Positions 3,510 through 26,118 of a stretch of DNA of 34,178 nt are shown in pieces (within the stretch, counting starts at the first letter, position 1; each line of letters starts with the position of its first letter). The DNA lies in the IMG/VR virus record IMGVR_UViG_2526164598_000024; one strand, written 5' to 3'. The stretch comes from a virus. Taxonomy: Duplodnaviria > Heunggongvirae > Uroviricota > Caudoviricetes. The notes under the pieces were generated by a model. That model had not been told where the DNA came from. It made no database searches and saw only the letters and a list, made by a program, of their open reading frames with translations. The translations under genes and the position numbers were made by a program.

Positions 3510-5775
3510 AGCCTCCGGGCGTTTTGTCCCTCCGTCAGCATTTACCGCAGGCACCGGTAAGGCGTTTACCGGTGCTTATGCATGGAACGCGCCACGCGAG
3601 GCTGTCGGGCGCGAAAGACCTCTTACACGTGACGAGATGCGTCAGGTGCAAGGTGTTTTATCCACGATTAACCGCCTGCCTTACTTTTTGCGCTCGCTGT
3701 TTACTTCACGCTATGACTACATCCGGCGCAATAAAAGCCCGGTGCACGGGTTTTATTTCCTCACATCCACTTTTCAGCGTCGTTTATGGCCGCGCATTGA
3801 GCGTGTGAATCAGCGCCATGAAATGAACACCGACGCGTCGTTGCTGTTTCTGGCAGAGCGTGACCACTATGCGCGCCTGCCGGGAATGAATGACAAGGAG
3901 CTGAAAAAGTTTGCCGCCCGTATCTCATCGCAGCTTTTCATGATGTATGAGGAACTCTGCGATGCATGGGTTGATGCGCATGGTGAAAAAGAATCGCTGT
4001 TTACGGATGAGGCGCAGGCTCACCTGTATGGTCATGTTGCTGGCGCTGCACGTGCTTTCAATATTTCCCCGCTCTACTGGAAAAAATACCGTAAAGGACA
4101 GATGACCACGAGGCAGGCATATTCTGCCATTGCCCGTCTGTTTAACGATGAGTGGTGGACTCATCAGCTTAAAGGCCAGCGTATGCGCTGGCATGAAGCG
4201 TTACTGATAGCTGTCGGGGAGGTCAATAAAGACCGTTCTCCTTATGCCAGTAAACACGCCATTCGTGATGTGCGTGCGCGCCGCCAGGCAAATCTGGAAT
4301 TTCTTAAATCGTGTGACCTTGAAAACAGGGAAACCGGCGAGCGCATCGACCTTATCAGTAAGGTGATGGGCAGTATTTCTAATCCTGAAATTCGCCGGAT
4401 GGAGCTGATGAACACCATTGCCGGTATTGAGCGTTACGCCGCCGCAGAGGGCGATGTGGGGATGTTTATCACGCTGACCGCACCGTCAAAGTATCACCCG
4501 ACACGTCAGGTCGGAAAAGGCGAAAGTAAAACCGTGCAGCTTAATCACGGCTGGAACGATGAGGCATTTAATCCAAAGGATGCGCAGCGTTATCTCTGCC
4601 GTATCTGGAGCCTGATGCGCACGGCATTCAAGGATAATGATTTACAGGTTTACGGTTTGCGAGTCGTCGAGCCACACCACGACGGAACGCCGCACTGGCA
4701 TATGATGCTTTTTTGTAATCCACGCCAGCGTAACCAGATTATTGAAATCATGCGTCGCTACGCGCTCAAAGAGGATGGCGACGAAAGAGGAGCTGCGCGA
4801 AACCGTTTTCAGGCAAAACACCTTAACCGGGGCGGTGCTGCGGGATATATCGCGAAATACATTTCAAAAAACATCGACGGCTATGCACTGGATGGTCAGC
4901 TCGATAACGATACCGGCAGGCCGCTGAAAGACACTGCCGCGGCTGTTACCGCATGGGCGTCAACGTGGCGCATTCCGCAATTTAAAACGGTTGGCCTGCC
5001 GACAATGGGGGCTTACCGTGAACTACGCAAATTGCCTCGCGGCGTCAGCATTGCTGATGAGTTTGACGAGCGCGTCGAGGCTGCACGCGCCGCCGCAGAC
5101 AGTGGTGATTTTGCGTTGTATATCAGCGCGCAGGGTGGGGCAAATGTCCCGCGCGATTGTCAGACTGTCAGGGTCGCCCGTAGCCCGTCGGATGACGTTA
5201 ACGAGTACGAGGAAGAAGTCGAGAGAGTGGTCGGCATTTACGCGCCGCATCTCGGCGCGCGTCATATTCATATCACCAGAACGACGGACTGGCGCATTGT
5301 GCCGAAAGTTCCGGTCGTTGAGCCTTTGACTTTAAAAAGCGGCATCGCCGCGCCTCGGAGTCCTGTCAATAACTGTGGAAAGCTCACCGGTGGTGATACT
5401 TCGTTACCGGCTCCCACACCTTCTGAGCACGCCGCAGCAGTGCTTAATCTGGTTGATGACGGTGTTATCGAATGGAATGACCCGGAGGTCGTGAGGGCGC
5501 TCAAAAGCGCATTAAAACACGGCCTGAGAAGACCAAACCGTCAGCAAAGAAACGGAAACCCGTTAAAACCACATGAAATTGCACCATCGGCCAGACTGAG
5601 CCGGTCGGAGCGATTGCAAATCACCCGTATCCGCGTTGACCTTGCTCAGAATGGAATCTTGCCCCAGCGATGGGAGCTTGAGGCGCTGGCGCGTGGGGCA
5701 ACCGTAAATTATGACGGGAAAAAATTCACGTATCCGGTTGCTGATGAGTGGTCGGTTTTTTCAATTAAACAATAA
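3499..5775 (+). CDS. A: Replication initiation protein A (rolling-circle nickase)
   Basis: Large ORF (track 3457..5775); ATG at 3499 overlaps end of the upstream gene and gives about 758 aa, close to P2 gpA. Contains a tyrosine-rich motif region (AGYIAKYISKNIDGY) typical of rolling-circle initiators. Confidence 0.85.
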   Translation: MAVKASGRFVPPSAFTAGTGKAFTGAYAWNAPREAVGRERPLTRDEMRQVQGVLSTINRLPYFLRSLFTSRYDYIRRNKSPVHGFYFLTSTFQRRLWPRIERVNQRHEMNTDASLLFLAERDHYARLPGMNDKELKKFAARISSQLFMMYEELCDAWVDAHGEKESLFTDEAQAHLYGHVAGAARAFNISPLYWKKYRKGQMTTRQAYSAIARLFNDEWWTHQLKGQRMRWHEALLIAVGEVNKDRSPYASKHAIRDVRARRQANLEFLKSCDLENRETGERIDLISKVMGSISNPEIRRMELMNTIAGIERYAAAEGDVGMFITLTAPSKYHPTRQVGKGESKTVQLNHGWNDEAFNPKDAQRYLCRIWSLMRTAFKDNDLQVYGLRVVEPHHDGTPHWHMMLFCNPRQRNQIIEIMRRYALKEDGDERGAARNRFQAKHLNRGGAAGYIAKYISKNIDGYALDGQLDNDTGRPLKDTAAAVTAWASTWRIPQFKTVGLPTMGAYRELRKLPRGVSIADEFDERVEAARAAADSGDFALYISAQGGANVPRDCQTVRVARSPSDDVNEYEEEVERVVGIYAPHLGARHIHITRTTDWRIVPKVPVVEPLTLKSGIAAPRSPVNNCGKLTGGDTSLPAPTPSEHAAAVLNLVDDGVIEWNDPEVVRALKSALKHGLRRPNRQQRNGNPLKPHEIAPSARLSRSERLQITRIRVDLAQNGILPQRWELEALARGATVNYDGKKFTYPVADEWSVFSIKQ

Positions 5776-5976
5776 TGGCTACTGCCGCAGCGTTGTGGGA
5801 ATGCTATAGTGTTTGTAGAATTATCCCATGAAAAACAACTAATTAATCTGTTTTTCATATTGAACTAATTTTTTATGGCCACAGTTGTTAAAAAGTGAGA
5901 ACATAATCTTGTTCAAAACCTGCTTCTATATACGGAGGCTTTCGCTATAATACGCGGTCGGTTTTAGGAGGGGATA

Positions 5977-6921
5977 ATGCCAACAGTAGTTTCACTTTTT
6001 TCTGGATGCGGTGGTTCCGATGCGGGGGTTCTGAGAGCTGGCTTTGATGTGCTTATGGCCAACGATATCTTGCCGTATGCGCGCGATGTTTATATTGCCA
6101 ATCATCCAGAAACTGATTACATTTTAGGCAATATTGCTGATGTAACTACTTTTCCTAAATCTGATTTGCTAGTAGGTTGTTATCCATGTCAGGGATTCAG
6201 CCAGGGTGGTGCGCGTAAGGCCGATCGAAAAATTAATACTCTTTATTTAGAGTTTGCTAGAGCTTTAAACAATATAAAGCCTAAAGCTTTTATAGTAGAA
6301 AACGTGTCTGGTATGGTTAGAAAAAACTTCGAGCATTTGTTATCTGACCAGATCAGGGTTTTTACTGAAGCAGGTTATGCTGTTTCAGCAAAAGTTTTGA
6401 ATGCGGCTGAATATGGAGTAGCGCAGGAAAGAAAAAGAATATTTATCGTAGGAATCCGTAATGATTTCAAAGTTAAGTACGAGTTCCCTCAGCCAACTCA
6501 TGGGCCGGCGACTGGCGTCAACTATGTTACTATTAAAGATGCTATAGGGCATTTACCTGAATGGCCAGAAGGTGAATTTTATGATATGGGGTTCCATTGG
6601 TATTATATGTCTCGCAATCGTCGCCAAGATTGGGATCAAATTTCAAAGACAATAGTTGCTAATGCAAGGCATATGCCGTTGCATCCTATCAGTCCTTCGA
6701 TGGAGAAAGTAAGAACTGATGAATGGAGGTTTGTTGAGGATCGGAGAGCTCGCAGATTCAGTTTTCGAGAGGCAGCACTATTACAAGGGTTTGAGGATCT
6801 AGTGTTTCCCGAAACAAATGCTGCAAGTCTTGGCATGAAATACACGGTGGTTGGTAATGCAGTGCCTCCGCCGCTTTTTGAAGCTGTAACGAAGGCATTG
6901 CCAATAGAATTATGGGATTGA
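5977..6921 (+). CDS. DNA (cytosine-5)-methyltransferase, Dcm family
   Basis: 314 aa; canonical C5-MTase motifs visible: FSGCGG (motif I, AdoMet binding), PCQGFS (motif IV catalytic Cys), IVENVSGM (motif VI), QERKRIFIVG (motif VIII), GNAVPPPL (motif X). Strong Shine-Dalgarno AGGAGG before ATG 5977. AT-rich compared with phage backbone. Confidence 0.9.
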   Translation: MPTVVSLFSGCGGSDAGVLRAGFDVLMANDILPYARDVYIANHPETDYILGNIADVTTFPKSDLLVGCYPCQGFSQGGARKADRKINTLYLEFARALNNIKPKAFIVENVSGMVRKNFEHLLSDQIRVFTEAGYAVSAKVLNAAEYGVAQERKRIFIVGIRNDFKVKYEFPQPTHGPATGVNYVTIKDAIGHLPEWPEGEFYDMGFHWYYMSRNRRQDWDQISKTIVANARHMPLHPISPSMEKVRTDEWRFVEDRRARRFSFREAALLQGFEDLVFPETNAASLGMKYTVVGNAVPPPLFEAVTKALPIELWD

Positions 6922-6928
6922 TAAGCTA

Positions 6929-7921
6929 TTAAGGCTCTGGATTTAATGTATAAAGTTCTTCTTCAAATTCGCGAAACCAATCAGAGGTAGTTATCGCTTC
7001 CCATTGGTTTGCCTTATCAAGTAGATATATGATCCTCAACCTATCTAATAATAATACACCAGCGGTTGCATGTGTGCTTACCCATTCGCCATTTGCTTCC
7101 CGATAGAAAACAGGCGTGAACATTGTTGATGGATGCTGGAAAGCAATTTGGAAATAGGTGGTCAGTTTTAACACGTTAGCCTCTAATGTTTTGCTTGGCC
7201 ACCCTGTTTCTTGTGCACCACATTGACCAAGAATTCCATAGTTGCTAGTTTGACCATCAGGAAATTCCACTGTAGCAATTAGGTCAAACCCAGCATCACC
7301 AGATGTGGGAGCTTTATTTATTTCCCTTGTGTTTAAACTACAAACTCCAAGATCTTTTCCTAAAATTTGTAGAGCATTCCGAAGATTCGTTCCATAATAT
7401 TTTTGCCTATCATCGGAGTTAGCATCAAAAATTCTTACGGTGCCATGTGCAGGTAAGAGAGAAATCATTGCAACTTTACATACTCTGGCAAAGCTCTTTG
7501 CCCAACGTTGTGCTGCTCCTCTAATCGACTTAAAGGATCTAAGTCTAGAGCAACAAAGGAGAAAAACATATATTCTTTGTTGTTGGTTTAGATTTTCTTT
7601 AATAATTATCTCATCACCTGAAATTATAAATGGATATATCTTTCCAAGAGCGCTTTCTCTATATTCGAGTTGTGTCCAAACATCTTCTAGTTGCTCTTCA
7701 AAACGATCATTTCTCTCTGCGTCTCCATCAATTTCTTCTTCAAAATTACATTCTTCATCAATTTCTTCAACACTTGTCATGCCGAATTTTCTTACTGAAT
7801 CTAAATCATTTTTATGCAGAGAGTTACGTCCGATATAATTAATCACCGTGAGTAACTCGGCTAAATCTGCAAACAAATGGGGAGAGTTGGGATGCATAAC
7901 TCCTACTTCAAAAGTCATCAT
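6929..7921 (-). CDS. Hypothetical protein, 330-aa, candidate nuclease/effector partner of the adjacent methyltransferase and ParB-like gene
   Basis: Long uninterrupted minus-strand ORF in AT-rich DNA; ATG at 7921/7918 preceded by GAGGTG; converges on the MTase with only a 7-bp gap between stop codons; overlaps the end of the upstream ParB-like gene by about 14 bp (operon-like). No motif I can assign with confidence. Confidence 0.7.
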   Translation of the reverse strand: MMTFEVGVMHPNSPHLFADLAELLTVINYIGRNSLHKNDLDSVRKFGMTSVEEIDEECNFEEEIDGDAERNDRFEEQLEDVWTQLEYRESALGKIYPFIISGDEIIIKENLNQQQRIYVFLLCCSRLRSFKSIRGAAQRWAKSFARVCKVAMISLLPAHGTVRIFDANSDDRQKYYGTNLRNALQILGKDLGVCSLNTREINKAPTSGDAGFDLIATVEFPDGQTSNYGILGQCGAQETGWPSKTLEANVLKLTTYFQIAFQHPSTMFTPVFYREANGEWVSTHATAGVLLLDRLRIIYLLDKANQWEAITTSDWFREFEEELYTLNPEP

Positions 7922-8350
7922 CACCTCTGCTATTTTTCTCTGCTATTTCAGAACCTATAAGCTTAATATGTTTATTGATTCTTCGTGCTACTTCATGAGC
8001 CTGTCTATCATACTCTACTGTGGCAACCATGCCTGCTGCATCTATCAAAGCCGCTTCAACTTGATAAAGTAACTGGAGAAAGTCCTTAGTAATATCAGAT
8101 GTCAATTGGTAGGCCACTGCGAGTGGAGCCCCCATTCGGAATTGCTCCAATGCCTTAGGGCTACTAACAACAGCAGCTAATTCTCTTAAATTACGTGACT
8201 CTCCAACACGAGTTTTTTTATCCTCACCTTTTTTATATAACCACTCAGTTAGCTCTTTTATTTCTTTGTTCTTTAAGCTATTAGAGTTGATAATAGGATG
8301 ACTTGGTATTGTGTCTCCATCGTCTTCGATTGAAACTCCGACAAATTGGC
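7908..8350 (-). pseudogene. C-terminal fragment of ParB/Srx-domain protein gene split by IS2
   Basis: Reading frame continues exactly from the N-terminal fragment (9682..10365) once IS2 and one TTGGC copy are removed: ...ERLGQ|FVGVSIEDDGDT.... The track ORF 7908..8387 borrows an in-frame GTG start inside the IS2 right end. Confidence 0.8.
8346..8350. repeat. IS2 target-site duplication TTGGC (copy 1)
   Basis: 5-bp direct repeat immediately flanking the IS2 terminus at 8351; identical to 9682..9686. Confidence 0.85.
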
Positions 8351-8361
8351 TGGATTTGCCC

Positions 8362-9267
8362 CTATATTTCCAGACACCTGTTATCACTTAACCCATTACT
8401 GGCCTGCTGCCGCAGATATTCCCGTGGCGAGCGATAACCCAGTGCACTATGCGGATGCCATTCGTTATAATGCTCGAACGCCTCTGCAAGGTTCTTTGCT
8501 GCCGTTAACCCGTCTGGTTTAGGCATGATACTGATGTAGTCACGCTTTATCGTTTTCACGAAGCTCTCTGCTATGCCGTTACTCTCCGGACTCCGCACCG
8601 CCGTGTTCTTCGGTTCAAGCCCCAACATCCGGGCAAACTGCCGTGTTTCATTAGCCCGGTAGCATGAACCATTATCCGTCAGCCACTCTACTGGAGACGC
8701 CGGAAGCTCGTTGCCGAAGCGGCGTTCCACCGCTCCCAGCATTACGTCCTGTACTGTTTCACTGTCGAAGCCGCCCGTAGTGACTGCCCAGTGCAGTGCC
8801 TCACGGTCACAGCAGTCCAGCGCGAACGTGACTCGCAGTTTTTCTCCGTTATCACAGCGGAACTCGAACCCGTCAGAGCACCATCGTTGATTGCTTTCTT
8901 TCACGGCCACTTTGCCAGTATGTGCCCGTTTCGATGGCGGTACAGCGGTTTTTCGCTCAAGCAACAGCGCATTCTGGCGCATGATCCGGTAAACACGTTT
9001 GGCATTGATCGCAGGCATACCATCAAGTTCGGCCTGTCTGCGAAGCAGCGCCCATACCCGACGATAACCATACGTGGGCAGCTCTCCGATAACATGGTGT
9101 ATACGGAGAAGCACATCCGTATCATCTGAGTGACGGCTGCGGCGACCATCTTTCCAGTCATCGGTTCGTCTGAGAATTACGTGCAACTGCGCACGCGACA
9201 CCCGGAGACAACGGCTGACTAAGCTTACTCCCCATCCCCGGGCAATAAGGGCGCGTGCGCTATCCAC
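8362..9267 (-). CDS. insD: IS2 transposase OrfB (InsD), DDE integrase domain
   Basis: 301-aa ORF inside IS2; recognisable IS2 InsD sequence (..[20 protein letters not shown]..); overlaps insC as expected for -1 frameshift fusion. Confidence 0.9.
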
Positions 9268-9590
9268 TTTTTTGCACGCCCGTATTCAACGGCTTCTTTA
9301 AGGAGTTCATTTTCCATCGTTTTTTTGCCGAGCAGGCGCTGGAGTTCTTTAATCTGCTTCATGGCAGCAGCAAGTTCAGAGGCAGGAACGACCTGCTCTC
9401 CTGCGGCCACAGCAGTAAGACTTCCCTCCTGGTATTGCTTGCGCCAGAGAAATAACTGGCTGGCTGCCACACCGTGTTGCCGGGCAACAAGGGAGACCGT
9501 CATTCCCGGTTCAAAACTCTGCTGAACAATAGCGATCTTTTCCTGTGTAGTACGCCGTCTGCGTTTCTCCGGTCCTAAGACATCAATCAT
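9225..9590 (-). CDS. insC: IS2 transposase OrfA (InsC), HTH DNA-binding
   Basis: ATG at 9590 gives 121 aa starting [18 protein letters not shown], recognisable as IS2 InsC; track ORF extends further upstream to an earlier start. Confidence 0.9.
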
Positions 9591-9678
9591 CTGCTCTCCA
9601 ATGACTAGTCTAAAAACTAGTATTAAGACTATCACTTATTTAAGTGATATTGGTTGTCTGGAGATTCAGGGGGCCAGT

Positions 9679-10365
9679 CTATTGGCCTAACCGCTCATCA
9701 GCAAGTGCTGTTGATAATACTGAAAATTTAATCGTTTCTTCATCTAGTTTTTCAATACCATAAAAATCATTTTCTTTAATGATTTCATACACCGCTAAAG
9801 CGTCTAGGTTACGCTTGATATGATCCCTACGACTGCCAATAGCTCTGGCAACCTCATAGTAGCGTAGCATCGGATCCTGATTTGCATTGGTATAATCAAA
9901 AAGCTGTTTAATATATCGAGCTTTTGATAAGGGCTCCCATTGTTTGACACCAGTAATATGTCTGAAACCAAGATACGGAAGAATCTCTTCTCTTGTTTGG
10001 CGCTCAATGACAGGAACACGATCGACTGTATGTTTTGCATTTGATGCAATTTCTCGTAGTCGAGCACTTGGATTTTCACATAGTGTCGGATCGCGTAATA
10101 ATTTAACTGCGGATAGGCGACGGTTTCCTTCAACTACAATGTACTTCCCCGGCGCGACACTGTCAGGAATGACAATCAATGGTTCTCCAGGGAAAAAACC
10201 ATTTTCCGCAATAGCACTCATTAGATCTTCGATAGATGTTGAGGTTGCTATGTAGTTAATCATTCCCAATTGGTCACGAGACACGCCTTCAGGAAGTCTT
10301 GGGTTTTCTGTGTCAAGTTCCAAATCATCTAGCGGAACATAAAGTATTTCTGAATCAGCAATCAT
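9679..10365 (-). pseudogene. N-terminal fragment of ParB/Srx N-domain protein gene, truncated by IS2 (stop codon supplied by IS2 terminus)
   Basis: 228-aa ORF with ATG at 10365 and GGAG Shine-Dalgarno; contains ParB-box-like motif IVVEGNRRLSAVKLL (GxxRxxA arginine patch of ParB/sulfiredoxin fold). The TAG stop at 9679..9681 is the first three bases of IS2 (TAGACTGG...). Confidence 0.8.
9682..9686. repeat. IS2 target-site duplication TTGGC (copy 2)
   Basis: Identical 5-mer to 8346..8350, directly abutting the other IS2 terminus. Confidence 0.85.
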
Positions 10366-10591
10366 CTGGATCTCCGTTGAACATGTCTACGAGAAGGAGC
10401 ACAAAGTTATTTCATAACATGCAATATACTCATTCTGTAGCCATAAATGAATTATTCATGATGTAAGATTCGCGTTGATGTGCGTGAATTCGCAAGTAAT
10501 TTTATAGCAAGGTTTGATTGGGTATCGTTAGCACTGGCGCGGTTTCAACGTATTCATGCACCTGCATTAAAACCGACCCATGAAGCGGGCG

Positions 10592-10610
10592 GGCGAGGCG
10601 GGGAAAGCAC
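10592..10610. other. cos site, 19-nt cohesive end sequence of P2-type phages
   Basis: Sequence GGCGAGGCGGGGAAAGCAC matches the P2 cohesive end as I recall it; located between the cargo island and the portal gene Q, as expected. Confidence 0.7.
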
Positions 10611-10779
10611 TGCGCGCTGGCGGTGGTGCTGATTTTATTTTTTCAGCGTCTGAGCGCGTCGTGATGGCGTTTAGATTGTTAGCCGGGGCGTTGGTGTGTC
10701 TGCGGGCTGTTTTGTGCGGTGGTGAGCGTGTGAGAGCGTGATGGCGGGTTGTAAAAAAGCCGCCCGCAGGCGGCGATGT

Positions 10780-11814
10780 TCAGCCGTTGTCAGTGTCCAG
10801 TGAGTAGTTTTTAAAGCGGATGACCTCCTGACCGAGCCAGCCGTTTATCTCGCGGATCCTGTCCTGTAACGGGATAAGTTCATTGCGGACAAAGACCTTT
10901 GCCACTTTCTCAATATCACCCAGCGACCCGACGTTCTCCGGCTTGCCACCCATCAACTGAAAGGGGATGCGGTGCGCGTCCAGCAGGTCAGCGGCGCTGG
11001 CTTTTTTGATATTAAAAAAATCGTCCTTCGTCGCCACTTCACTGAGGGGGATAATTTTAATGCCGTCGGCTTTCCCCTGTGGGGCATAGAGAAACAGGTT
11101 TTTAAAGTTGTTGCGGCCTTTCGACTTGACCATGTTTTCGCGAAGCATTTCGATATCGTTGCGGTCCTGCACGGCATCGGTGACGTACATGATGTATCCG
11201 GCATGTGCGCCGTTTTCGTAATACTTGCGGCGGAACAGCGTGGCCGACTCATTCAGCCAGGCAGAGTTAAGGGCGCTGAGATATTCCGGCAGACCGTACA
11301 GCTCCTGATTAATATCCGGCTCCAGCAGGTGAAACACGGAGCCGGGCGCGAAAGGTGTCGGCTCGTTGAAAGACGGCACCCACCAGTAAACATCCTCCTC
11401 CACGCCACGACGGGTATATTTGGCCGGTGAGGTTTCCAGTCTGATGACCTTACCGGTGGTGCTGTAACGCTTTTCCAGAAACGCATTACCGAACACCAGA
11501 AAATCCAGCACAAAACGGCTGAAATCCTGCTGGGAAAGCCACGGGTGCGGGATAAACGTTGAAGCCAGAATATTACGTTTGACGTAAATCGGTGAGCTGT
11601 GATGCACGGCAGCACGCAGACTTTTTGCCAGGCCGGTAAAGCTGACCGGTGGCTCATACCATCTGCCGTTACTGATGCACTCGACGTAATCCAGAATGTC
11701 ACGCCGGTCGAGTACCGGTACCGGCTCACCAAAGGTGAATGCCTCCATTTTCGGGGCGCTGGCGGTCATTGTTTTTGCCGCAGGTTGCGGTGTTTTCCCT
11801 TTTTTCTTGCTCAT
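10780..11814 (-). CDS. Q: Portal protein
   Basis: 344-aa ORF, ATG at 11814 overlapping the terminase stop (ATGA); divergent from O/N/M as in P2; length equals P2 gpQ. Confidence 0.9.
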   Translation of the reverse strand: MSKKKGKTPQPAAKTMTASAPKMEAFTFGEPVPVLDRRDILDYVECISNGRWYEPPVSFTGLAKSLRAAVHHSSPIYVKRNILASTFIPHPWLSQQDFSRFVLDFLVFGNAFLEKRYSTTGKVIRLETSPAKYTRRGVEEDVYWWVPSFNEPTPFAPGSVFHLLEPDINQELYGLPEYLSALNSAWLNESATLFRRKYYENGAHAGYIMYVTDAVQDRNDIEMLRENMVKSKGRNNFKNLFLYAPQGKADGIKIIPLSEVATKDDFFNIKKASAADLLDAHRIPFQLMGGKPENVGSLGDIEKVAKVFVRNELIPLQDRIREINGWLGQEVIRFKNYSLDTDNG

Positions 11815-14672: not shown

Positions 14673-15746
14673 ATGCGCCAGGAAACCCGCTTTAAATTTA
14701 ATGCCTACCTGTCCCGTGTTGCCGAACTGAACGGCATCGACGCCGGTGATGTGTCGAAAAAATTCACCGTTGAACCGTCGGTCACCCAGACCCTGATGAA
14801 CACCATGCAGGAGTCCTCTGACTTTCTGACCCGCATCAACATTGTGCCGGTCAGCGAAATGAAAGGGGAAAAAATTGGTATTGGTGTCACCGGCTCCATC
14901 GCCAGCACCACCGACACCGCCGGTGGCACCGAGCGTCAGCCGAAGGACTTCTCGAAGCTGGCGTCAAACAAGTACGAATGCGACCAGATTAACTTCGATT
15001 TTTATATCCGCTACAAAACGCTTGACCTGTGGGCGCGTTATCAGGATTTCCAGCTCCGTATCCGTAACGCCATTATCAAACGCCAGTCCCTTGATTTCAT
15101 CATGGCCGGTTTTAACGGCGTGAAGCGTGCCGAAACCTCTGACCGCAACAGCAATCCGATGTTGCAGGATGTGGCGGTCGGCTGGCTGCAGAAATACCGC
15201 AATGAAGCCCCGGCGCGCGTGATGAGCAAGGTCACTGACGAGGAAGGGCGCACCACCTCTGAGGTTATCCGCGTGGGTAAGGGCGGTGATTATGCCAGCC
15301 TTGACGCACTGGTGATGGATGCGACCAACAACCTGATTGAACCGTGGTATCAGGAAGACCCTGACCTTGTGGTGATTGTGGGACGTCAGCTACTGGCGGA
15401 CAAATATTTCCCCATCGTCAACAAGGAGCAGGACAACAGCGAAATGCTGGCCGCTGACGTCATCATCAGCCAGAAACGCATCGGTAACCTGCCGGCGGTA
15501 CGCGTCCCGTACTTCCCGGCGGATGCGATGCTCATCACGAAGCTGGAAAACCTGTCCATCTACTACATGGATGACAGCCATCGCCGCGTGATTGAGGAAA
15601 ACCCGAAACTCGACCGCGTGGAGAACTACGAGTCAATGAACATTGATTACGTGGTGGAAGACTACGCCGCCGGTTGTCTGGTGGAAAAAATTAAGGTCGG
15701 TGATTTCTCCACACCGGCTAAGGCGACCGCAGAGCCGGGAGCGTAA
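14673..15746 (+). CDS. N: Major capsid protein
   Basis: 357-aa ORF, same length as P2 gpN; position after scaffold gene. Confidence 0.9.
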   Translation: MRQETRFKFNAYLSRVAELNGIDAGDVSKKFTVEPSVTQTLMNTMQESSDFLTRINIVPVSEMKGEKIGIGVTGSIASTTDTAGGTERQPKDFSKLASNKYECDQINFDFYIRYKTLDLWARYQDFQLRIRNAIIKRQSLDFIMAGFNGVKRAETSDRNSNPMLQDVAVGWLQKYRNEAPARVMSKVTDEEGRTTSEVIRVGKGGDYASLDALVMDATNNLIEPWYQEDPDLVVIVGRQLLADKYFPIVNKEQDNSEMLAADVIISQKRIGNLPAVRVPYFPADAMLITKLENLSIYYMDDSHRRVIEENPKLDRVENYESMNIDYVVEDYAAGCLVEKIKVGDFSTPAKATAEPGA

Positions 15747-15749
15747 CCG

Positions 15750-16493
15750 ATGACGAGTCCCGCACAGCGCCACATGATGCGGGTCTCGGCAGCGATGACC
15801 GCGCAGCGGGAAGTCGCCCCGCTGCGACATGCAACTGTCTATGAGCAGATGCTGGTTAAGCTCGCCGCAGACCAGCGCACACTGAAAGCGATTTATTCAA
15901 AAGAGCTGAAGGCCGCGAAAAAACGCGAACTGCTGCCGTTCTGGTTGCCGTGGGTGAACGGCGTGCTGGAGCAGGGCAAAGGTGCACAGGATGACATTCT
16001 GATGACGGTCATGCTGTGGCGTCTGGATACCGGCGATATTGCCGGTGCGCTGGAGATTGCCCGTTATGCCCTGAAGTACGGTCTGACCATGCCGGGTAAA
16101 CACCGCCGCACCCCGCCGTACATGTTCACCGAGGAGGTGGCGCTCGCGGCCATGCGTGCTCACGCTGCCGGTGAGTCTGTGGATACCCGCCTGCTGACGG
16201 AGACCCTTGAACTGACCGCCACGGCTGACATGCCTGATGAAGTGCGCGCAAAGCTGCACAAAATCACCGGTCTGTTTCTGCGTGACGGTGGTGATGCCGC
16301 AGGGGCGCTGGCGCACCTGCAACGTGCGACACAGCTCGACTGTCAGGCAGGCGTCAAAAAAGAGATTGAACGACTGGAGCGGGAGCTGAAACCGAAGCCG
16401 GAGCCGCAGCCCAAAGCGGCCACCCGTACCCCGCGTAAGACCCGGAGCGTGACACCGGCAAAACGTGGACGCCCGAAAAAGAAAGCCAGTTAA
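15750..16493 (+). CDS. M: Terminase small (endonuclease) subunit
   Basis: 247-aa ORF, same length as P2 gpM; basic Lys/Arg-rich C-terminal tail. Confidence 0.85.
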   Translation: MTSPAQRHMMRVSAAMTAQREVAPLRHATVYEQMLVKLAADQRTLKAIYSKELKAAKKRELLPFWLPWVNGVLEQGKGAQDDILMTVMLWRLDTGDIAGALEIARYALKYGLTMPGKHRRTPPYMFTEEVALAAMRAHAAGESVDTRLLTETLELTATADMPDEVRAKLHKITGLFLRDGGDAAGALAHLQRATQLDCQAGVKKEIERLERELKPKPEPQPKAATRTPRKTRSVTPAKRGRPKKKAS

Positions 16494-16592
16494 CAACCGA
16501 ATGCGCCCCGCGCCAGGGCGGCACGCCGGTCAGTGAGGGTGAATCACCTGACACTGCACCGGCGTCCACCGCCCGACTTTTCAGAGGTGGTC

Positions 16593-22452: not shown

Positions 22453-24474
22453 ATGAGCACAAAATTCAGAACCGTTATCACCACTGCCGGTGCAGCAAAG
22501 CTGGCAGCGGCAACCGCGCCGGGAGGGCGGAAGGTCAACATTACCACGATGGCCGTCGGGGATGGCGGTGGTAAATTGCCTGTCCCGGATGCCGGACAGA
22601 CCGGGCTTATCCACGAAGTCTGGCGACATGCGCTGAACAAAATCAGCCAGGACAAACGAAACAGTAATTATATTATCGCAGAGCTGGTTATTCCGCCGGA
22701 GGTGGGCGGTTTCTGGATGCGTGAGCTTGGCCTGTACGATGATGCGGGAACGTTAATTGCCGTGGCGAACATGGCCGAAAGTTATAAGCCAGCTCTTGCC
22801 GAAGGCTCAGGGCGTTCGCAGACCTGCCGCATGGTCATCATCGTCAGCAGTGTGGCCTCAGTGGAGCTGACCATTGACACCACAACGGTGATGGCGACGC
22901 AGGATTACGTTGATGACAAAATTGCAGAGCACGAACAGTCACGACGTCACCCGGACGCCTCGCTGACCGCAAAAGGTTTTACTCAGTTAAGCAGTGCGAC
23001 CAACAGCATGTCTGAAATGCTTGCCGCAACGCCAAAAGCCGTTAAGACGGTAATGGATGAAACGAACAAGAAAGCGCCATTAAACAGCCCTGTACTGACC
23101 GGAACGCCAACGACGCCAACTGCGCGACAGGGAACGAATAATACTCAGATCGCAAACACGGCTTTCGTTATGGCCGCGATTGCCGCCCTTGTAGACTCGT
23201 CGCCTGACGCACTGAATACGCTGAACGAGCTGGCGGCGGCGCTGGGCAATGACCCGAATTTTGCTACCACCATGACTAATGCGCTTGCGGGTAAGCAACC
23301 GAAAGATGCTACCCTGACGGCGCTGGCGGGGCTTGCTACTGCGGCAGACAGGTTTCCGTATTTTACGGGGAATGATGTTGCCAGCCTGGCAACCCTGACA
23401 AAAGTCGGGCGGGATATTCTGGCTAAATCGACCGTTGCCGCCGTTATCGAATATCTCGGTTTACAGGAAACGGTAAACCGAGCCGGGAACGCCGTGCAAA
23501 AAAATGGCGATACCTTGTCCGGTGGACTTACTTTTGAAAACGACTCAATCCTTGCCTGGATTCGAAATACTGACTGGGCGAAGATTGGATTTAAAAATGA
23601 TGCCGATGGTGACACTGATTCATTCATGTGGTTTGAAACGGGGGATAACGGCAATGAATATTTCAAATGGAGAAGCCGCCAGAGTACTACAACAAAAGAC
23701 CTGATGAATCTTAAATGGGATGCTTTGTATGTTCTTGTCAATGCCATTGTAAATGGCGAAGTCATATCAAAATCAGCAAACGGCCTACGTATTGCTTATG
23801 GTAATTACGGATTCTTTATTCGTAATGATGGTTCAAATACATACTTCATGTTGACAAACTCCGGTGACAACATGGGGACTTATAACGGATTAAGGCCATT
23901 ATGGATTAATAACGCTACTGGCGCTGTTTCGATGGGGCGTGGCCTTAATGTTTCAGGGGAGACGCTTTCAGACCGTTTTGCTATTAACAGCAGTAATGGT
24001 ATGTGGATTCAGATGCGCGATAACAACGCTATCTTTGGGAAAAATATAGTTAACACTGATAGCGCTCAGGCGTTGCTTCGCCAGAATCACGCTGACCGCA
24101 AGTTCATGATAGGTGGACTGGGGAACAAGCAATTTGGCATCTACATGATTAATAACTCAAGGACAGCCAATGGCACCGATGGTCAGGCGTACATGGATAA
24201 TAACGGTAACTGGCTTTGTGGCTCGCAAGTTATTCCCGGCAACTATGGCAATTTTGATTCCAGATATGTGAAAGATGTTCGACTTGGTTCACAGCAATAT
24301 TATGGAGTTAACAACTGGCAAACATGGAATTTCCAGTGCCCGTCAGGTCATGTATTGTCTGGTATTAATGTTCAGGATACAGGGTCCAACTCTGCCGATA
24401 ATATAGCGGGCGTTTATTACAGACCCGTTCAAAAGTATATAAATGGCACCTGGTATAATGTAGCGAGCGTTTAA
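22453..24474 (+). CDS. H: Tail fibre protein H
   Basis: 673 aa; Ala/Thr-rich repeats in the N-terminal half, Asn/Gly-rich C-terminal receptor-binding part; followed by tail-fibre assembly gene. Confidence 0.85.
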
Positions 24475-25218: not shown

Positions 25219-26118
25219 ATGAGTGGTATTCGTATAACTCAGGCTATTGATAACAATCAGATTTTAGTCAATGTAAATACTTTTAATTATAGTGTTAATC
25301 CCTATCCACTCAAATGTCCTGACCCAAATTGCTCTGCTCATTTGGTGTATGTCAAAAGCCATATTCGTCGGAGTTTTAATAAAACCTTGCATATCCCCGC
25401 CTTCTTTAGACTGGAAAAAAATTTCACGCATGACAAATTATGTCAGTATGGAACTTCAGGATTGAATACAATTTATGCAAGTGATTCCAGTCATGATATC
25501 AGCCGTGCGCTTGCCACAGGTAATAATATATTCCGTATACATATACTCGATGAAGATGATATCTCTAAATTAAGCAGAAAAGCTGCAGCTATGCAGGCAA
25601 ATCCACCTTCTGATACTACAGACCGCGTTTATGTCAAGAGAGGTCGGAAAGCCCCCTATGTGAAGAACATGGATAGCTTACGGGAGATCTATGAATATGG
25701 AAAAGCTCACCCCAACAAGAGAAACAGCATAAAAATTGTTACTGGAACAAGTACTGTAACGTGGTCTGATTTTTTCTATGAAACAACGCAGTTAGAACGA
25801 TTGTCAACTTACCTCCAGAAAGTAAAAATAGCTCAGGTTGCTGTAATTATGAAAGTGCATGTGGCGAGAATCCCTATGGCGAAATTTAATTATCGACACT
25901 TCATTGAAGGTTCGCCAATGAGGATAAAAGGGGGCTTTAATATATATCCTACGATTCAATTAGGAAATGTTACTCCAAAATTATTTCCGTTGAGTAGCAT
26001 TGTCATGGTACTCGGTAAATTTACTATTCCAACAAATAGAAAAATGATAATGGATCCAACATTTGAGCGTGAAGTCAGAACCATAGTTTCTAGTGAAGAG
26101 CAAGTGCTAATTCTTTGA
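25219..26118 (+). CDS. Hypothetical protein in the Z/fun cargo locus (candidate phage-exclusion/defence gene)
   Basis: 299-aa ORF with strong GGAGGA Shine-Dalgarno, visibly AT-rich, flanked by long non-coding spacers between G and FI (the P2 Z/fun position). N-terminal Cys/His cluster (CPDPNCSAHLVYVKSH). May be the P2 Z/fun homologue; I cannot confirm from memory. Confidence 0.65.
   Translation: MSGIRITQAIDNNQILVNVNTFNYSVNPYPLKCPDPNCSAHLVYVKSHIRRSFNKTLHIPAFFRLEKNFTHDKLCQYGTSGLNTIYASDSSHDISRALATGNNIFRIHILDEDDISKLSRKAAAMQANPPSDTTDRVYVKRGRKAPYVKNMDSLREIYEYGKAHPNKRNSIKIVTGTSTVTWSDFFYETTQLERLSTYLQKVKIAQVAVIMKVHVARIPMAKFNYRHFIEGSPMRIKGGFNIYPTIQLGNVTPKLFPLSSIVMVLGKFTIPTNRKMIMDPTFEREVRTIVSSEEQVLIL

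Follow-up and report, generated by a model that had tools for sequence, protein, structure and literature searches.

PD-lambda-5 is a prophage-borne system described as 'ParB/HEPN, methyltransferase' (Vassallo et al. 2022, PMC9519451); its cloning required a strain from which the mrr region had been removed (PMC9519451). A three-gene cargo, coding for a C5 methyltransferase and for proteins of 329 aa and 373 aa, is listed without being discussed in supplementary file 6 of Rousset 2022 among the contents of the P2 hotspot, which is flanked by the genes for gpA and the portal. A literature search found no paper naming the protein accessions or PDC-M38.

The DNA analysed here (the window, 34,178 nt; IMG/VR record IMGVR_UViG_2526164598_000024, Caudoviricetes) carries this cargo in a P2-like prophage, with the gene for the 373-aa ParB-like protein split by the insertion sequence IS2 (Table 1). 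With a probability of roughly 0.85, a single, recent and incidental IS2 hit disrupted the first gene of the operon, with the inferred consequences and module mechanism set out below.

Table 1. Features of the interrupted module and of the IS2 element, in coordinates of the window.
Feature	Position	Strand	Description and basis
C5 cytosine DNA methyltransferase gene	5977..6921	+	Intact, 314 aa; convergent with the ParB/nuclease operon
Partner gene	6929..7918	-	329 aa from ATG at 7918; downstream of the ParB-like gene
ParB-like gene, 3' fragment	7908..8345	-	Codons 229-373 and stop; reconstruction, alignment, AlphaFold2
Chimeric ORF	7908..8387	-	159 aa; GTG in IRR; 14 IS2 codons and codons 229-373
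Target-site duplication TTGGC, IRR side	8346..8350		
IS2 (IS3 family), complete	8351..9681	-	1331 bp; co-directional with the interrupted gene
Right inverted repeat (IRR)	8351..8391		Part of IS2
IS2 orfB (insD)	8362..9267	-	DDE transposase frame, 301 aa; NF006918, Pfam
IS2 orfA (insC)	9225..9590	-	Repressor/TnpA, 121 aa; NCBIfam NF006928
A6G -1 frameshift motif of IS2	9267..9273		Sequence scan
Left inverted repeat (IRL)	9640..9681		Part of IS2
Target-site duplication TTGGC, IRL side	9682..9686		
ParB-like gene, 5' fragment	9682..10365	-	Codons 1-228; ORF list, PADLOC, Foldseek

An intact IS2 splits a ParB-like gene

The initial annotation had placed an IS2 of 1331 bp at 8351..9681 with a TTGGC duplication, and all of its coordinates proved right on re-checking. 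The element has the features of IS2 and the IS3 family, namely overlapping orfA and orfB frames, the frameshift motif, an rve domain, terminal inverted repeats of 42 and 41 bp (31 of 42 positions identical) and a perfect 5-bp direct repeat, TTGGC, on both sides. Full-length matches were obtained with the NCBIfam models for IS2 TnpA (NF006928, 275.8 bits against a cut-off of 229; residues 16-136 of a 136-aa ORF aligned to model positions 1-121) and IS2 TnpB (NF006918, 706.5 bits against a cut-off of 597; positions 1-301 of 301), and orfB also matched the Pfam families rve, rve_3 and HTH_21. The prophage of Escherichia coli TW10590 has an IS2 copy that is identical at 1331 of 1331 positions and bears the annotation of an IS3-family transposase with programmed frameshift. 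These data show that a single recent copy-out/paste-in transposition placed an intact IS2 in the gene and duplicated TTGGC.

The N-terminal ORF, including its stop, spans 9679..10365 on the minus strand (228 aa). As had been noted from the ORF list, its TAG stop is supplied by the IS2 end, being the reverse complement of 9679..9681, the final three bases of the element. Removal of IS2 and one copy of TTGGC was claimed to restore a 373-aa frame, and joining 7908..8350 to 9687..10365 in silico indeed gave 1122 nt in frame coding for 373 aa, with the insertion point between codons 228 and 229 and a junction reading ADERLGQ/FVGVSIEDDGD. At the DNA level, all 1122 nt of the reconstructed ORF match (100% identity) a CDS that is annotated without interruption in TW10590 (WP_000559726.1), showing that the frame did not arise by chance; the gene order around this CDS is the same as in the window.

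The 5' fragment, with its upstream Shine-Dalgarno sequence GGAG still intact, spans a ParB/Srx N-terminal domain with a GNRR motif and a helix-turn-helix-like middle domain. The 3' fragment encodes a mostly helical, family-specific C-terminal domain, in which a GESRNLR motif is conserved and the tail, ending in DDDF, is acidic. In an AlphaFold2 model of the reconstructed protein (mean pLDDT 88.9), the cut site falls where the fold is predicted with confidence (pLDDT about 90-94) and not in a linker, and the PADLOC match to PDC-M38A covers aa 43-339, bridging the junction. The ORFs of 228 aa and 159 aa should be flagged in annotation as pieces of one pseudogene.

Fold of the ParB-like protein

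Foldseek matched the reconstructed protein to ParB, KorB, Noc and sulfiredoxin (E down to 8.7e-7, probability 1.0), and residues E79-G80-N81-R82-R83, with the Box II arginine pair in the form GNRR, were invariant in an alignment of 37 sequences. Pfam returned no match at E <= 0.01 for this protein or for the 329-aa partner; at E <= 10 both gave noise, apart from ParB_N at E 0.039 with the reconstructed sequence, and PF02195 is precomputed on many homologues. Judged by its modelled fold and GxRR motif, the protein is a member of the ParB/Srx fold superfamily, and the earlier name 'ParB-like' is thus apt at fold level, given the Foldseek matches to ParB, KorB and Noc.

An identity as a partition ParB (ParABS) was rejected: no parA adjoins the gene, either in the hotspot or in those related loci that were examined for gene content, the N-terminus (MIADSEILYVPLDD) has no LG(K/R)GL-type ParA-binding motif, and the TIGR00180 score of 32.8 bits is below the cut-off of 58.45. 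HEPN identity of the C-terminal domain was likewise rejected as a family feature, the R-x4-H motif (RRINKH, 349-354, in the window protein) being present in only 11 of 37 members and thus not conserved. The intergenic regions held no convincing inverted repeat as a parS-like site, and Rfam gave no match within 5700..10900.

The partner gene and the three-gene module

The partner gene is served by a Shine-Dalgarno sequence of its own, GAGGTG, and its start and the stop of the ParB-like gene overlap by 11 nt; PGAP lists the identical gene as WP_000142507.1. In the PDB, Foldseek ranked MspJI first (E 7e-3, probability 0.94), followed by NgoMIV, with a TM of only about 0.26, and the top BFVD matches were 'Restriction endonuclease' and 'Mrr-like'. 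The invariant residues of the family are D212, Q232 and K243, a D...Q...K arrangement with atypical, non-canonical spacing. None of 32 family members had a Pfam match, PDB sequence searches with the partner (single sequence and profile) gave nothing meaningful and PADLOC had no match for the 329-aa protein; one distant family member matched PADLOC mREase_II at 1.3e-4. The structural matches weakly predict an MspJI/Mrr-type PD-(D/E)XK-like nuclease.

The third gene encodes a methyltransferase (PF00145, E 5e-65; TIGR00675 match), whose best solved relative is M.HaeIII over its full length (E 2.8e-48), a similarity from which GGCC may be guessed as the target. The ParB-like gene and, behind it, the partner form a two-gene operon in the cargo slot of the P2-like prophage, flanked by the genes for gpA and the portal. 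The initial annotation had spoken of hotspot cargo, rightly so, as the three-gene set appears in supplementary file 6 of Rousset 2022 for the P2 hotspot; the intact module is recurrent cargo at this site, and TW10590, ATCC 8739 and phage HQ103 all carry it. In other genera the ParB-like gene lies directly 5' of the partner gene in all 20 informative loci, and the full three-gene set is also found in Methylomonas and Pseudomonas. The methyltransferase adjoins the pair in all 48 E. coli genomes with the module and in 12 of 18 informative loci of other genera; the remaining 6 of 18 have no adjacent homologous C5 methyltransferase, which makes strict restriction-modification dependence doubtful. 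This experimentally uncharacterised ParB/nuclease pair is conserved across Proteobacteria.

The insertion is recent and rare

Among 5426 complete E. coli genomes, 48 have the gene, uninterrupted in each, and in these 48 the partner and methyltransferase genes are also contiguous and uninterrupted; the IS2/gene junction of the window occurs in none of the 5426. The truncated 228-aa product was found on 3 contigs only, one of which, AIHH01000059.1, matches the window with 100% identity over 16.7 kb. Over about 32.8 kb, only 3 differing positions separate the TW10590 prophage from the window, and the identical IS2 of that prophage sits in the tail-fibre gene H, not in the ParB-like gene. By these sequence comparisons, the insertion is recent, rare and limited to one E. 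coli lineage.

Two explanations had been offered at the outset, selection against a costly or toxic defence gene and recent decay. The second is supported by the 3 differences from the TW10590 sister prophage. According to the first, the insertion was selected for relieving a toxic or costly ParB-like/nuclease operon, with the protective methyltransferase kept. In keeping with this, IS2 struck the leading gene of the putative effector operon, leaving the methyltransferase untouched; restriction-modification-like modules tolerate loss of the effector with the methyltransferase retained and no other order, so that effector-first is the sole order of loss open to such a module. The cloning of PD-lambda-5 in an mrr-region deletion strain also shows that modules of this kind can clash with host systems. 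However, the insertion is a single event at a single site on 3 contigs, all 48 other genomes have the operon uninterrupted, and the viable phage HQ103 also has an intact one. In 6 of 18 loci, ParB/nuclease pairs have been kept with no methyltransferase next to them, which argues that the pair is not obviously lethal alone. Since the same IS2 struck the tail-fibre gene of the sister prophage, the insertion looks like random IS2 activity. One lineage carries the event, and neutral and adaptive insertion are therefore not separable. We consider selection unlikely; the IS2 hit looks like an incidental result of an active IS2, and not like recurrent selected inactivation.

Expression after the insertion

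The in-frame GTG-start ORF that had been reported inside the IS2 right end (7908..8387) is present in the ORF list and is also predicted by the gene caller on the source contig. If it were translated from IS2 read-through, the 228-aa and 159-aa fragments might work together as a split protein and keep the nuclease gene active, a possibility to which the co-directionality of IS2 with the ParB-like gene, the existence and gene calling of the chimeric frame and the Shine-Dalgarno sequence of the 329-aa gene lend some weight. Inspection of the sequence directly upstream of the GTG at 8387 (GTAATGGGTTAA), however, revealed no usable Shine-Dalgarno sequence, a custom scan found no hybrid promoter formed by the IS2 right end and the flank at the junction, and the wild-type IS2 right end has been reported to have no detectable promoter activity (PMC12095673). 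Promoters and terminators predicted in 5700..10900 were no more numerous than in shuffled sequence. As judged from ribosome-binding site and promoter sequences, read-through expression of the C-terminal remnant is not supported, and with the cut lying inside a confidently folded region (pLDDT about 90-94) instead of a linker, a functional split protein is very improbable.

Under the preferred reading of a disruptive insertion, the product left behind would be a 228-aa protein with the ParB N-terminal and helix-turn-helix parts, ending at the IS2 TAG and lacking the conserved C-terminal domain. Through polarity, the insertion probably lowers transcription of the downstream nuclease gene (329 aa), while the methyltransferase would stay intact. 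The good Shine-Dalgarno sequence of the 329-aa gene means that any read-through transcript could still be translated.

The two fragments belong to one gene

The initial annotation had treated the two fragments as one gene and proposed a search for IS-free alleles, and this search found continuous genes throughout: in the 48 complete genomes, in phage HQ103, whose allele forms one CDS of 1122 nt, and in 36 aligned homologues (58-91% identity), which read across the insertion point with no natural stop there. In one of the 48 genomes, NCTC8623, the ParB gene has a 1-bp length difference and is annotated as two ORFs. PHROGs has separate families matching the N-terminal part only (1-226) and the C-terminal part only (299-373), and these families (phrog_18017 and phrog_25440) appear to have been built from fragments of the IS2-split gene. 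That the fragments are naturally separate genes, or the junction an assembly artefact, is refuted: the PHROGs families, the one observation in its favour, are best explained as products of the IS2 split, the target-site duplication is perfect over 5 bp, the 373-aa gene is continuous in 48 complete genomes and 36 aligned homologues, and three separate assemblies share the junction, with contigs from the two read sets SRR096911 and SRR13614867 among them.

Significance of the locus

By itself, the insertion is an ordinary case of an insertion sequence eroding a prophage and matters little, and the context of the three-gene module is of more use than the IS2 event. The insertion shows that loss of the module with the methyltransferase retained does not kill the host. 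In the intact module, the ParB-like protein may be an NTP-gated DNA-binding partner by which the nuclease is positioned or licensed on DNA, with the methyltransferase marking resident DNA. It is conceivable, though we hold it for doubtful at present, that the module is a distinct methylation-linked anti-phage system in which a ParB-fold switch, and not a helicase or translocase, licenses an MspJI/Mrr-like nuclease. If so, the IS2 allele would be a natural methyltransferase-only mutant that can be compared with the isogenic intact TW10590 prophage, and this near-isogenic pair is ready for such a test.

Comparison with known systems

As a gene disruption by IS2 (IS3 family), the element in the window is the same as other insertions in length, repeats, orfA/orfB, A6G site and duplication; its sole novelty is the target site, which is absent as an insertion site from the 5426 complete E. 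coli genomes. With the canonical CTP-dependent ParB/KorB/Noc clamps, the ParB-like protein shares the N-terminal and helix-turn-helix fold (Foldseek E about 1e-6) and the invariant GNRR arginines, whereas every member of its family has Asn for the Glu of GERR, the C-terminal domain differs and the examined loci lack parA. The module resembles type II restriction-modification systems whose M and R genes converge (such as HaeIII-type), in that a HaeIII-like C5 methyltransferase gene is convergent with an operon encoding a restriction-nuclease-like fold; here, however, the nuclease call is weak, a ParB-like gene is added and an adjacent homologous methyltransferase is missing from 6 of 18 related loci.

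The logic proposed for the intact module is likened to that of the validated PD-lambda-5 (ParB/HEPN protein and methyltransferase). Both are prophage-borne and have a homologous N-terminal ParB-like part, with a DNA methyltransferase encoded alongside. The PADLOC match to PD-Lambda-5_A covers aa 9-192 of the ParB-like protein (E 1.6e-28) and profile positions 7-196 of 440, but homology ends at position 196, the C-terminal domains differ and the window protein has 373 aa compared with about 500 aa. Moreover, the methyltransferase in the window is of the C5 class (PF00145), whereas PD-lambda-5B is a D12 N6-adenine methyltransferase (PF02086). Membership in PD-lambda-5 was rejected, as the module has neither a ParB+HEPN protein A nor a D12-class protein B. 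The sequence comparison points to a distant relationship of the ParB-like part to PD-lambda-5, in a module distinguished from that system by its extra 329-aa nuclease-like gene.

An IS2 insertion splits a single ParB-like gene

Deletion of the IS2 element and of one of the two TTGGC copies that flank it yielded a 1122-nt ORF coding for 373 aa (junction ...ADERLGQ|FVGVS...), and all features described in the initial annotation (IS2, TTGGC repeats, TAG stop and junction) were seen in the sequence. The reconstructed 1122 nt matched as a single unbroken piece in 48 of the 5426 complete E. coli genomes, with 100% identity in TW10590, a strain carrying a sister prophage, and 99.9% in an assembly of ATCC 8739. 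In IS-free genomes the gene is one 373-aa CDS (WP_000559726.1, annotated 'ParB N-terminal domain-containing protein') and the gene order is that of the window, running from the replication endonuclease gene gpA through a DNA cytosine methyltransferase, a hypothetical protein of 329 aa (hereafter the partner) and the ParB-like gene to the portal gene. In phage HQ103 (Peduovirus, isolated on Yersinia pestis) the module is 97.3% identical and neither gene is broken. Thirty-six homologues (58-91% identity; Enterobacteria to Methylomonas, Burkholderia and Pseudomonas) all have lengths of approximately 370-390 aa, and their alignment is continuous across the insertion site, which is flanked by invariant residues (A222 and G231). 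The unbroken match in 48 complete genomes bears out the proposal that IS2 cut one gene, and since the homologues align straight across the site rather than showing a natural stop there, the fragments represent one split gene.

Features of the module, the IS2 element and associated loci in the window
Feature	Position	Strand	Remarks
Inverted repeat	5828..5858		Perfect, 10 nt, ATGAAAAACA ... TGTTTTTCAT, 11 nt apart; gpA-methyltransferase intergenic region
C5 methyltransferase	5977..6921	plus	314 aa; best solved relative M.HaeIII, full length
Partner gene	6929..7918		329 aa; overlaps the ParB-like stop by 11 nt; own Shine-Dalgarno GAGGTG
TTGGC copies	8346..8350 and 9682..9686		Either side of IS2
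IS2	8351..9681	minus (transposase)	1331 bp; ends TGGATTTGCCCC... and ...GGGGGCCAGTCTA
IS2 frameshift motif	9267..9273		AAAAAAG
N-terminal fragment ORF	9679..10365	minus	228 aa; stop TAG formed by the final three bases of IS2
Tail-fibre gene H	22453..24474		Position of the TW10590 IS2: ~23641..23646
ORF between tail-fibre assembly and tail-sheath genes	25219..26118	plus	299 aa

Read in transposase orientation (minus strand), the element starts with TAGACTGGCCCCCTGAATCTCCAGACA and has imperfect terminal repeats of 42/41 bp. Both frames gave full-length matches above the curated cut-offs to NCBIfam 'IS2 repressor TnpA' and 'IS2 transposase TnpB', which, together with the terminal repeats and the frameshift motif, identifies the element as an IS2 that is complete and probably active. 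Within the target TTGGC|C (8346..8351, 9682..9687) lies GGCC, which M.HaeIII has as its site; M.HaeIII is also the nearest solved relative of the adjoining methyltransferase, probably a coincidence.

The insertion is recent and rare

IS2 itself was found in 4465 of the 5426 complete E. coli genomes, and the IS2 junction of the window in none of them. Only three contigs on record code for the exact 228-aa truncated product: AIHH01000059.1 (GCA_000250355.2), 100% identical to the window across 16.7 kb including IS2, and contigs of read sets SRR096911 and SRR13614867, which end inside IS2 and have the same junction. The TW10590 prophage occupies the same site (cpxP-fieF), and across ~32.8 kb its differences from the window amount to two mismatches and a single gap, in line with the earlier suggestion that the gene was cut recently. 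Its ParB-like gene is intact, and a 1331/1331-identical IS2 (15231..16561 of the TW10590 locus, L004) lies in tail-fibre gene H. The two insertions are independent events on sister copies of one prophage, and that these were hit at different places indicates a very recent insertion in a lineage with active IS2.

The initial annotation had also considered selection against a toxic gene. Methyltransferase, partner and ParB-like gene were contiguous and unbroken in all 48 complete genomes carrying the module, with no sign of recurrent inactivation among them, so that this reading of a single event is without population support and is unlikely; the IS2 event is ordinary pseudogenisation.

As to expression of the C-terminal remnant, a 159-aa ORF with a GTG start exists (preceded by GTAATGGGTTAA|GTG). 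No usable Shine-Dalgarno sequence was present upstream of this GTG, no -35/-10 pair spanning the IS2 right-end junction was found, and a general promoter scan gave no excess over shuffled sequence. A reporter study picked the 150-bp IS2 right end for having no detectable promoter activity (PMC12095673). The lack of a usable ribosome binding site and of a junction promoter, together with this property of the right end, suggests that expression would be possible only via weak read-through, and the proposed remnant expression is unsupported.

Properties of the encoded proteins

The reconstructed 373-aa protein had no Pfam match at normal thresholds. PADLOC gave two matches, PD-Lambda-5_A over aa 9-192 (E 1.6e-28) and the candidate family PDC-M38A over aa 43-339, and phrog_3694 in PHROGs is its full-length family, with function listed as unknown. 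In the AlphaFold2 model (mean pLDDT 88.9), Foldseek matched the N-terminal and helix-turn-helix part to CTP-dependent ParB, KorB and Noc (E about 1e-6, probability 1.0). The Box II motif of the family is an invariant GNRR, with Asn in place of the Glu of canonical ParB (GERR). A role as partition ParB was rejected, as the loci examined had no adjoining parA and the protein lacks a ParA-binding motif and scores below the TIGR00180 cut-off. The C-terminal 145 residues severed by IS2 make up a mostly helical domain that is specific to the family and has a conserved GESRNLR motif. A HEPN assignment of this domain is unjustified: R-x4-H occurs in the window allele, yet only 11 of the 37 members have it. 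The acidic tail (...DDDF; 7908..7925, minus strand), whose final Phe is invariant in every family member, resembles the C-terminal tail of SSB (DDDIPF) and by analogy may be a partner-docking peptide. Two further PHROGs, phrog_18017 (227 positions), which matches only residues 1-226 (9682..10365), and phrog_25440 (75 positions), which matches exactly M299..F373 (7908..8132, minus strand), look like families built from IS2-split fragments, not real proteins.

The partner family comprises 1237 cluster representatives at E <= 1e-3, with no Pfam domain in the 32 members searched. The best PDB match of the partner model (mean pLDDT 80) was MspJI (E 7e-3, probability 0.94), with NgoMIV next, and its best viral matches were 'Restriction endonuclease' and 'Mrr-like' proteins. 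One distant member weakly matched the PADLOC methyl-directed type II restriction enzyme model, and the family invariants include D212, Q232 and K243. On the basis of these results, the partner is a probable, still putative, PD-(D/E)XK-type nuclease. The inverted repeat upstream of the methyltransferase could be an operator or terminator.

Distribution and predicted function of the module

In other genera, all 20 informative loci have the ParB-like gene immediately ahead of the partner gene, and a homologous C5 methyltransferase adjoins the pair in 12 of 18; the complete three-gene set also occurs in Methylomonas and Pseudomonas nitroreducens. The pair is intact without an adjoining homologous C5 methyltransferase in six loci, mostly from Methylococcales (L016, L021, L024, L027, L028, L029), which argues against strict restriction-modification dependence. 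Immediately downstream of the pair, L021 has ORFs that, to judge by their N-terminal sequences only, resemble IS607-type transposition genes.

The ParB-fold protein of the intact module probably binds DNA NTP-dependently and probably recruits or licenses the putative nuclease, while the methyltransferase would mark resident DNA. IS2 would cut the ParB-like protein short after its helix-turn-helix part, with loss of the conserved C-terminal domain. Since IS2 polarity is established in the gal operon, transcription of the nuclease gene is probably reduced as well; the methyltransferase would be unaffected.

Comparison with known defence systems

The cargo found here is also listed, as 'DNA_methylase + hypothetical + ParBc', among P2 hotspot contents (supplementary file 6 of Rousset et al. 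2022), where it was neither discussed nor tested. The tail-fibre assembly/tail-sheath interval is a second P2 defence hotspot (Vassallo et al.), and the 299-aa ORF located there in the window had no match in Pfam or PADLOC.

The validated system closest to the module is PD-lambda-5, recorded as 'ParB/HEPN, methyltransferase' and termed a compacted prophage 'RM+Abi' system (Vassallo et al. 2022, PMC9519451). Common to the two are a ParB-like N-terminal part and an accompanying methyltransferase. Membership of the module in PD-lambda-5 was rejected, because the C-terminal domain of the ParB-like protein differs, the methyltransferase is of the C5 class whereas that of PD-lambda-5 is a D12 N6-adenine enzyme, and the module has an extra nuclease-like gene. 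By analogy, we infer that the three-gene module hit by IS2 works like a relative, not a member, of PD-lambda-5, and as an uncharacterised relative of that system it is worth experiment.
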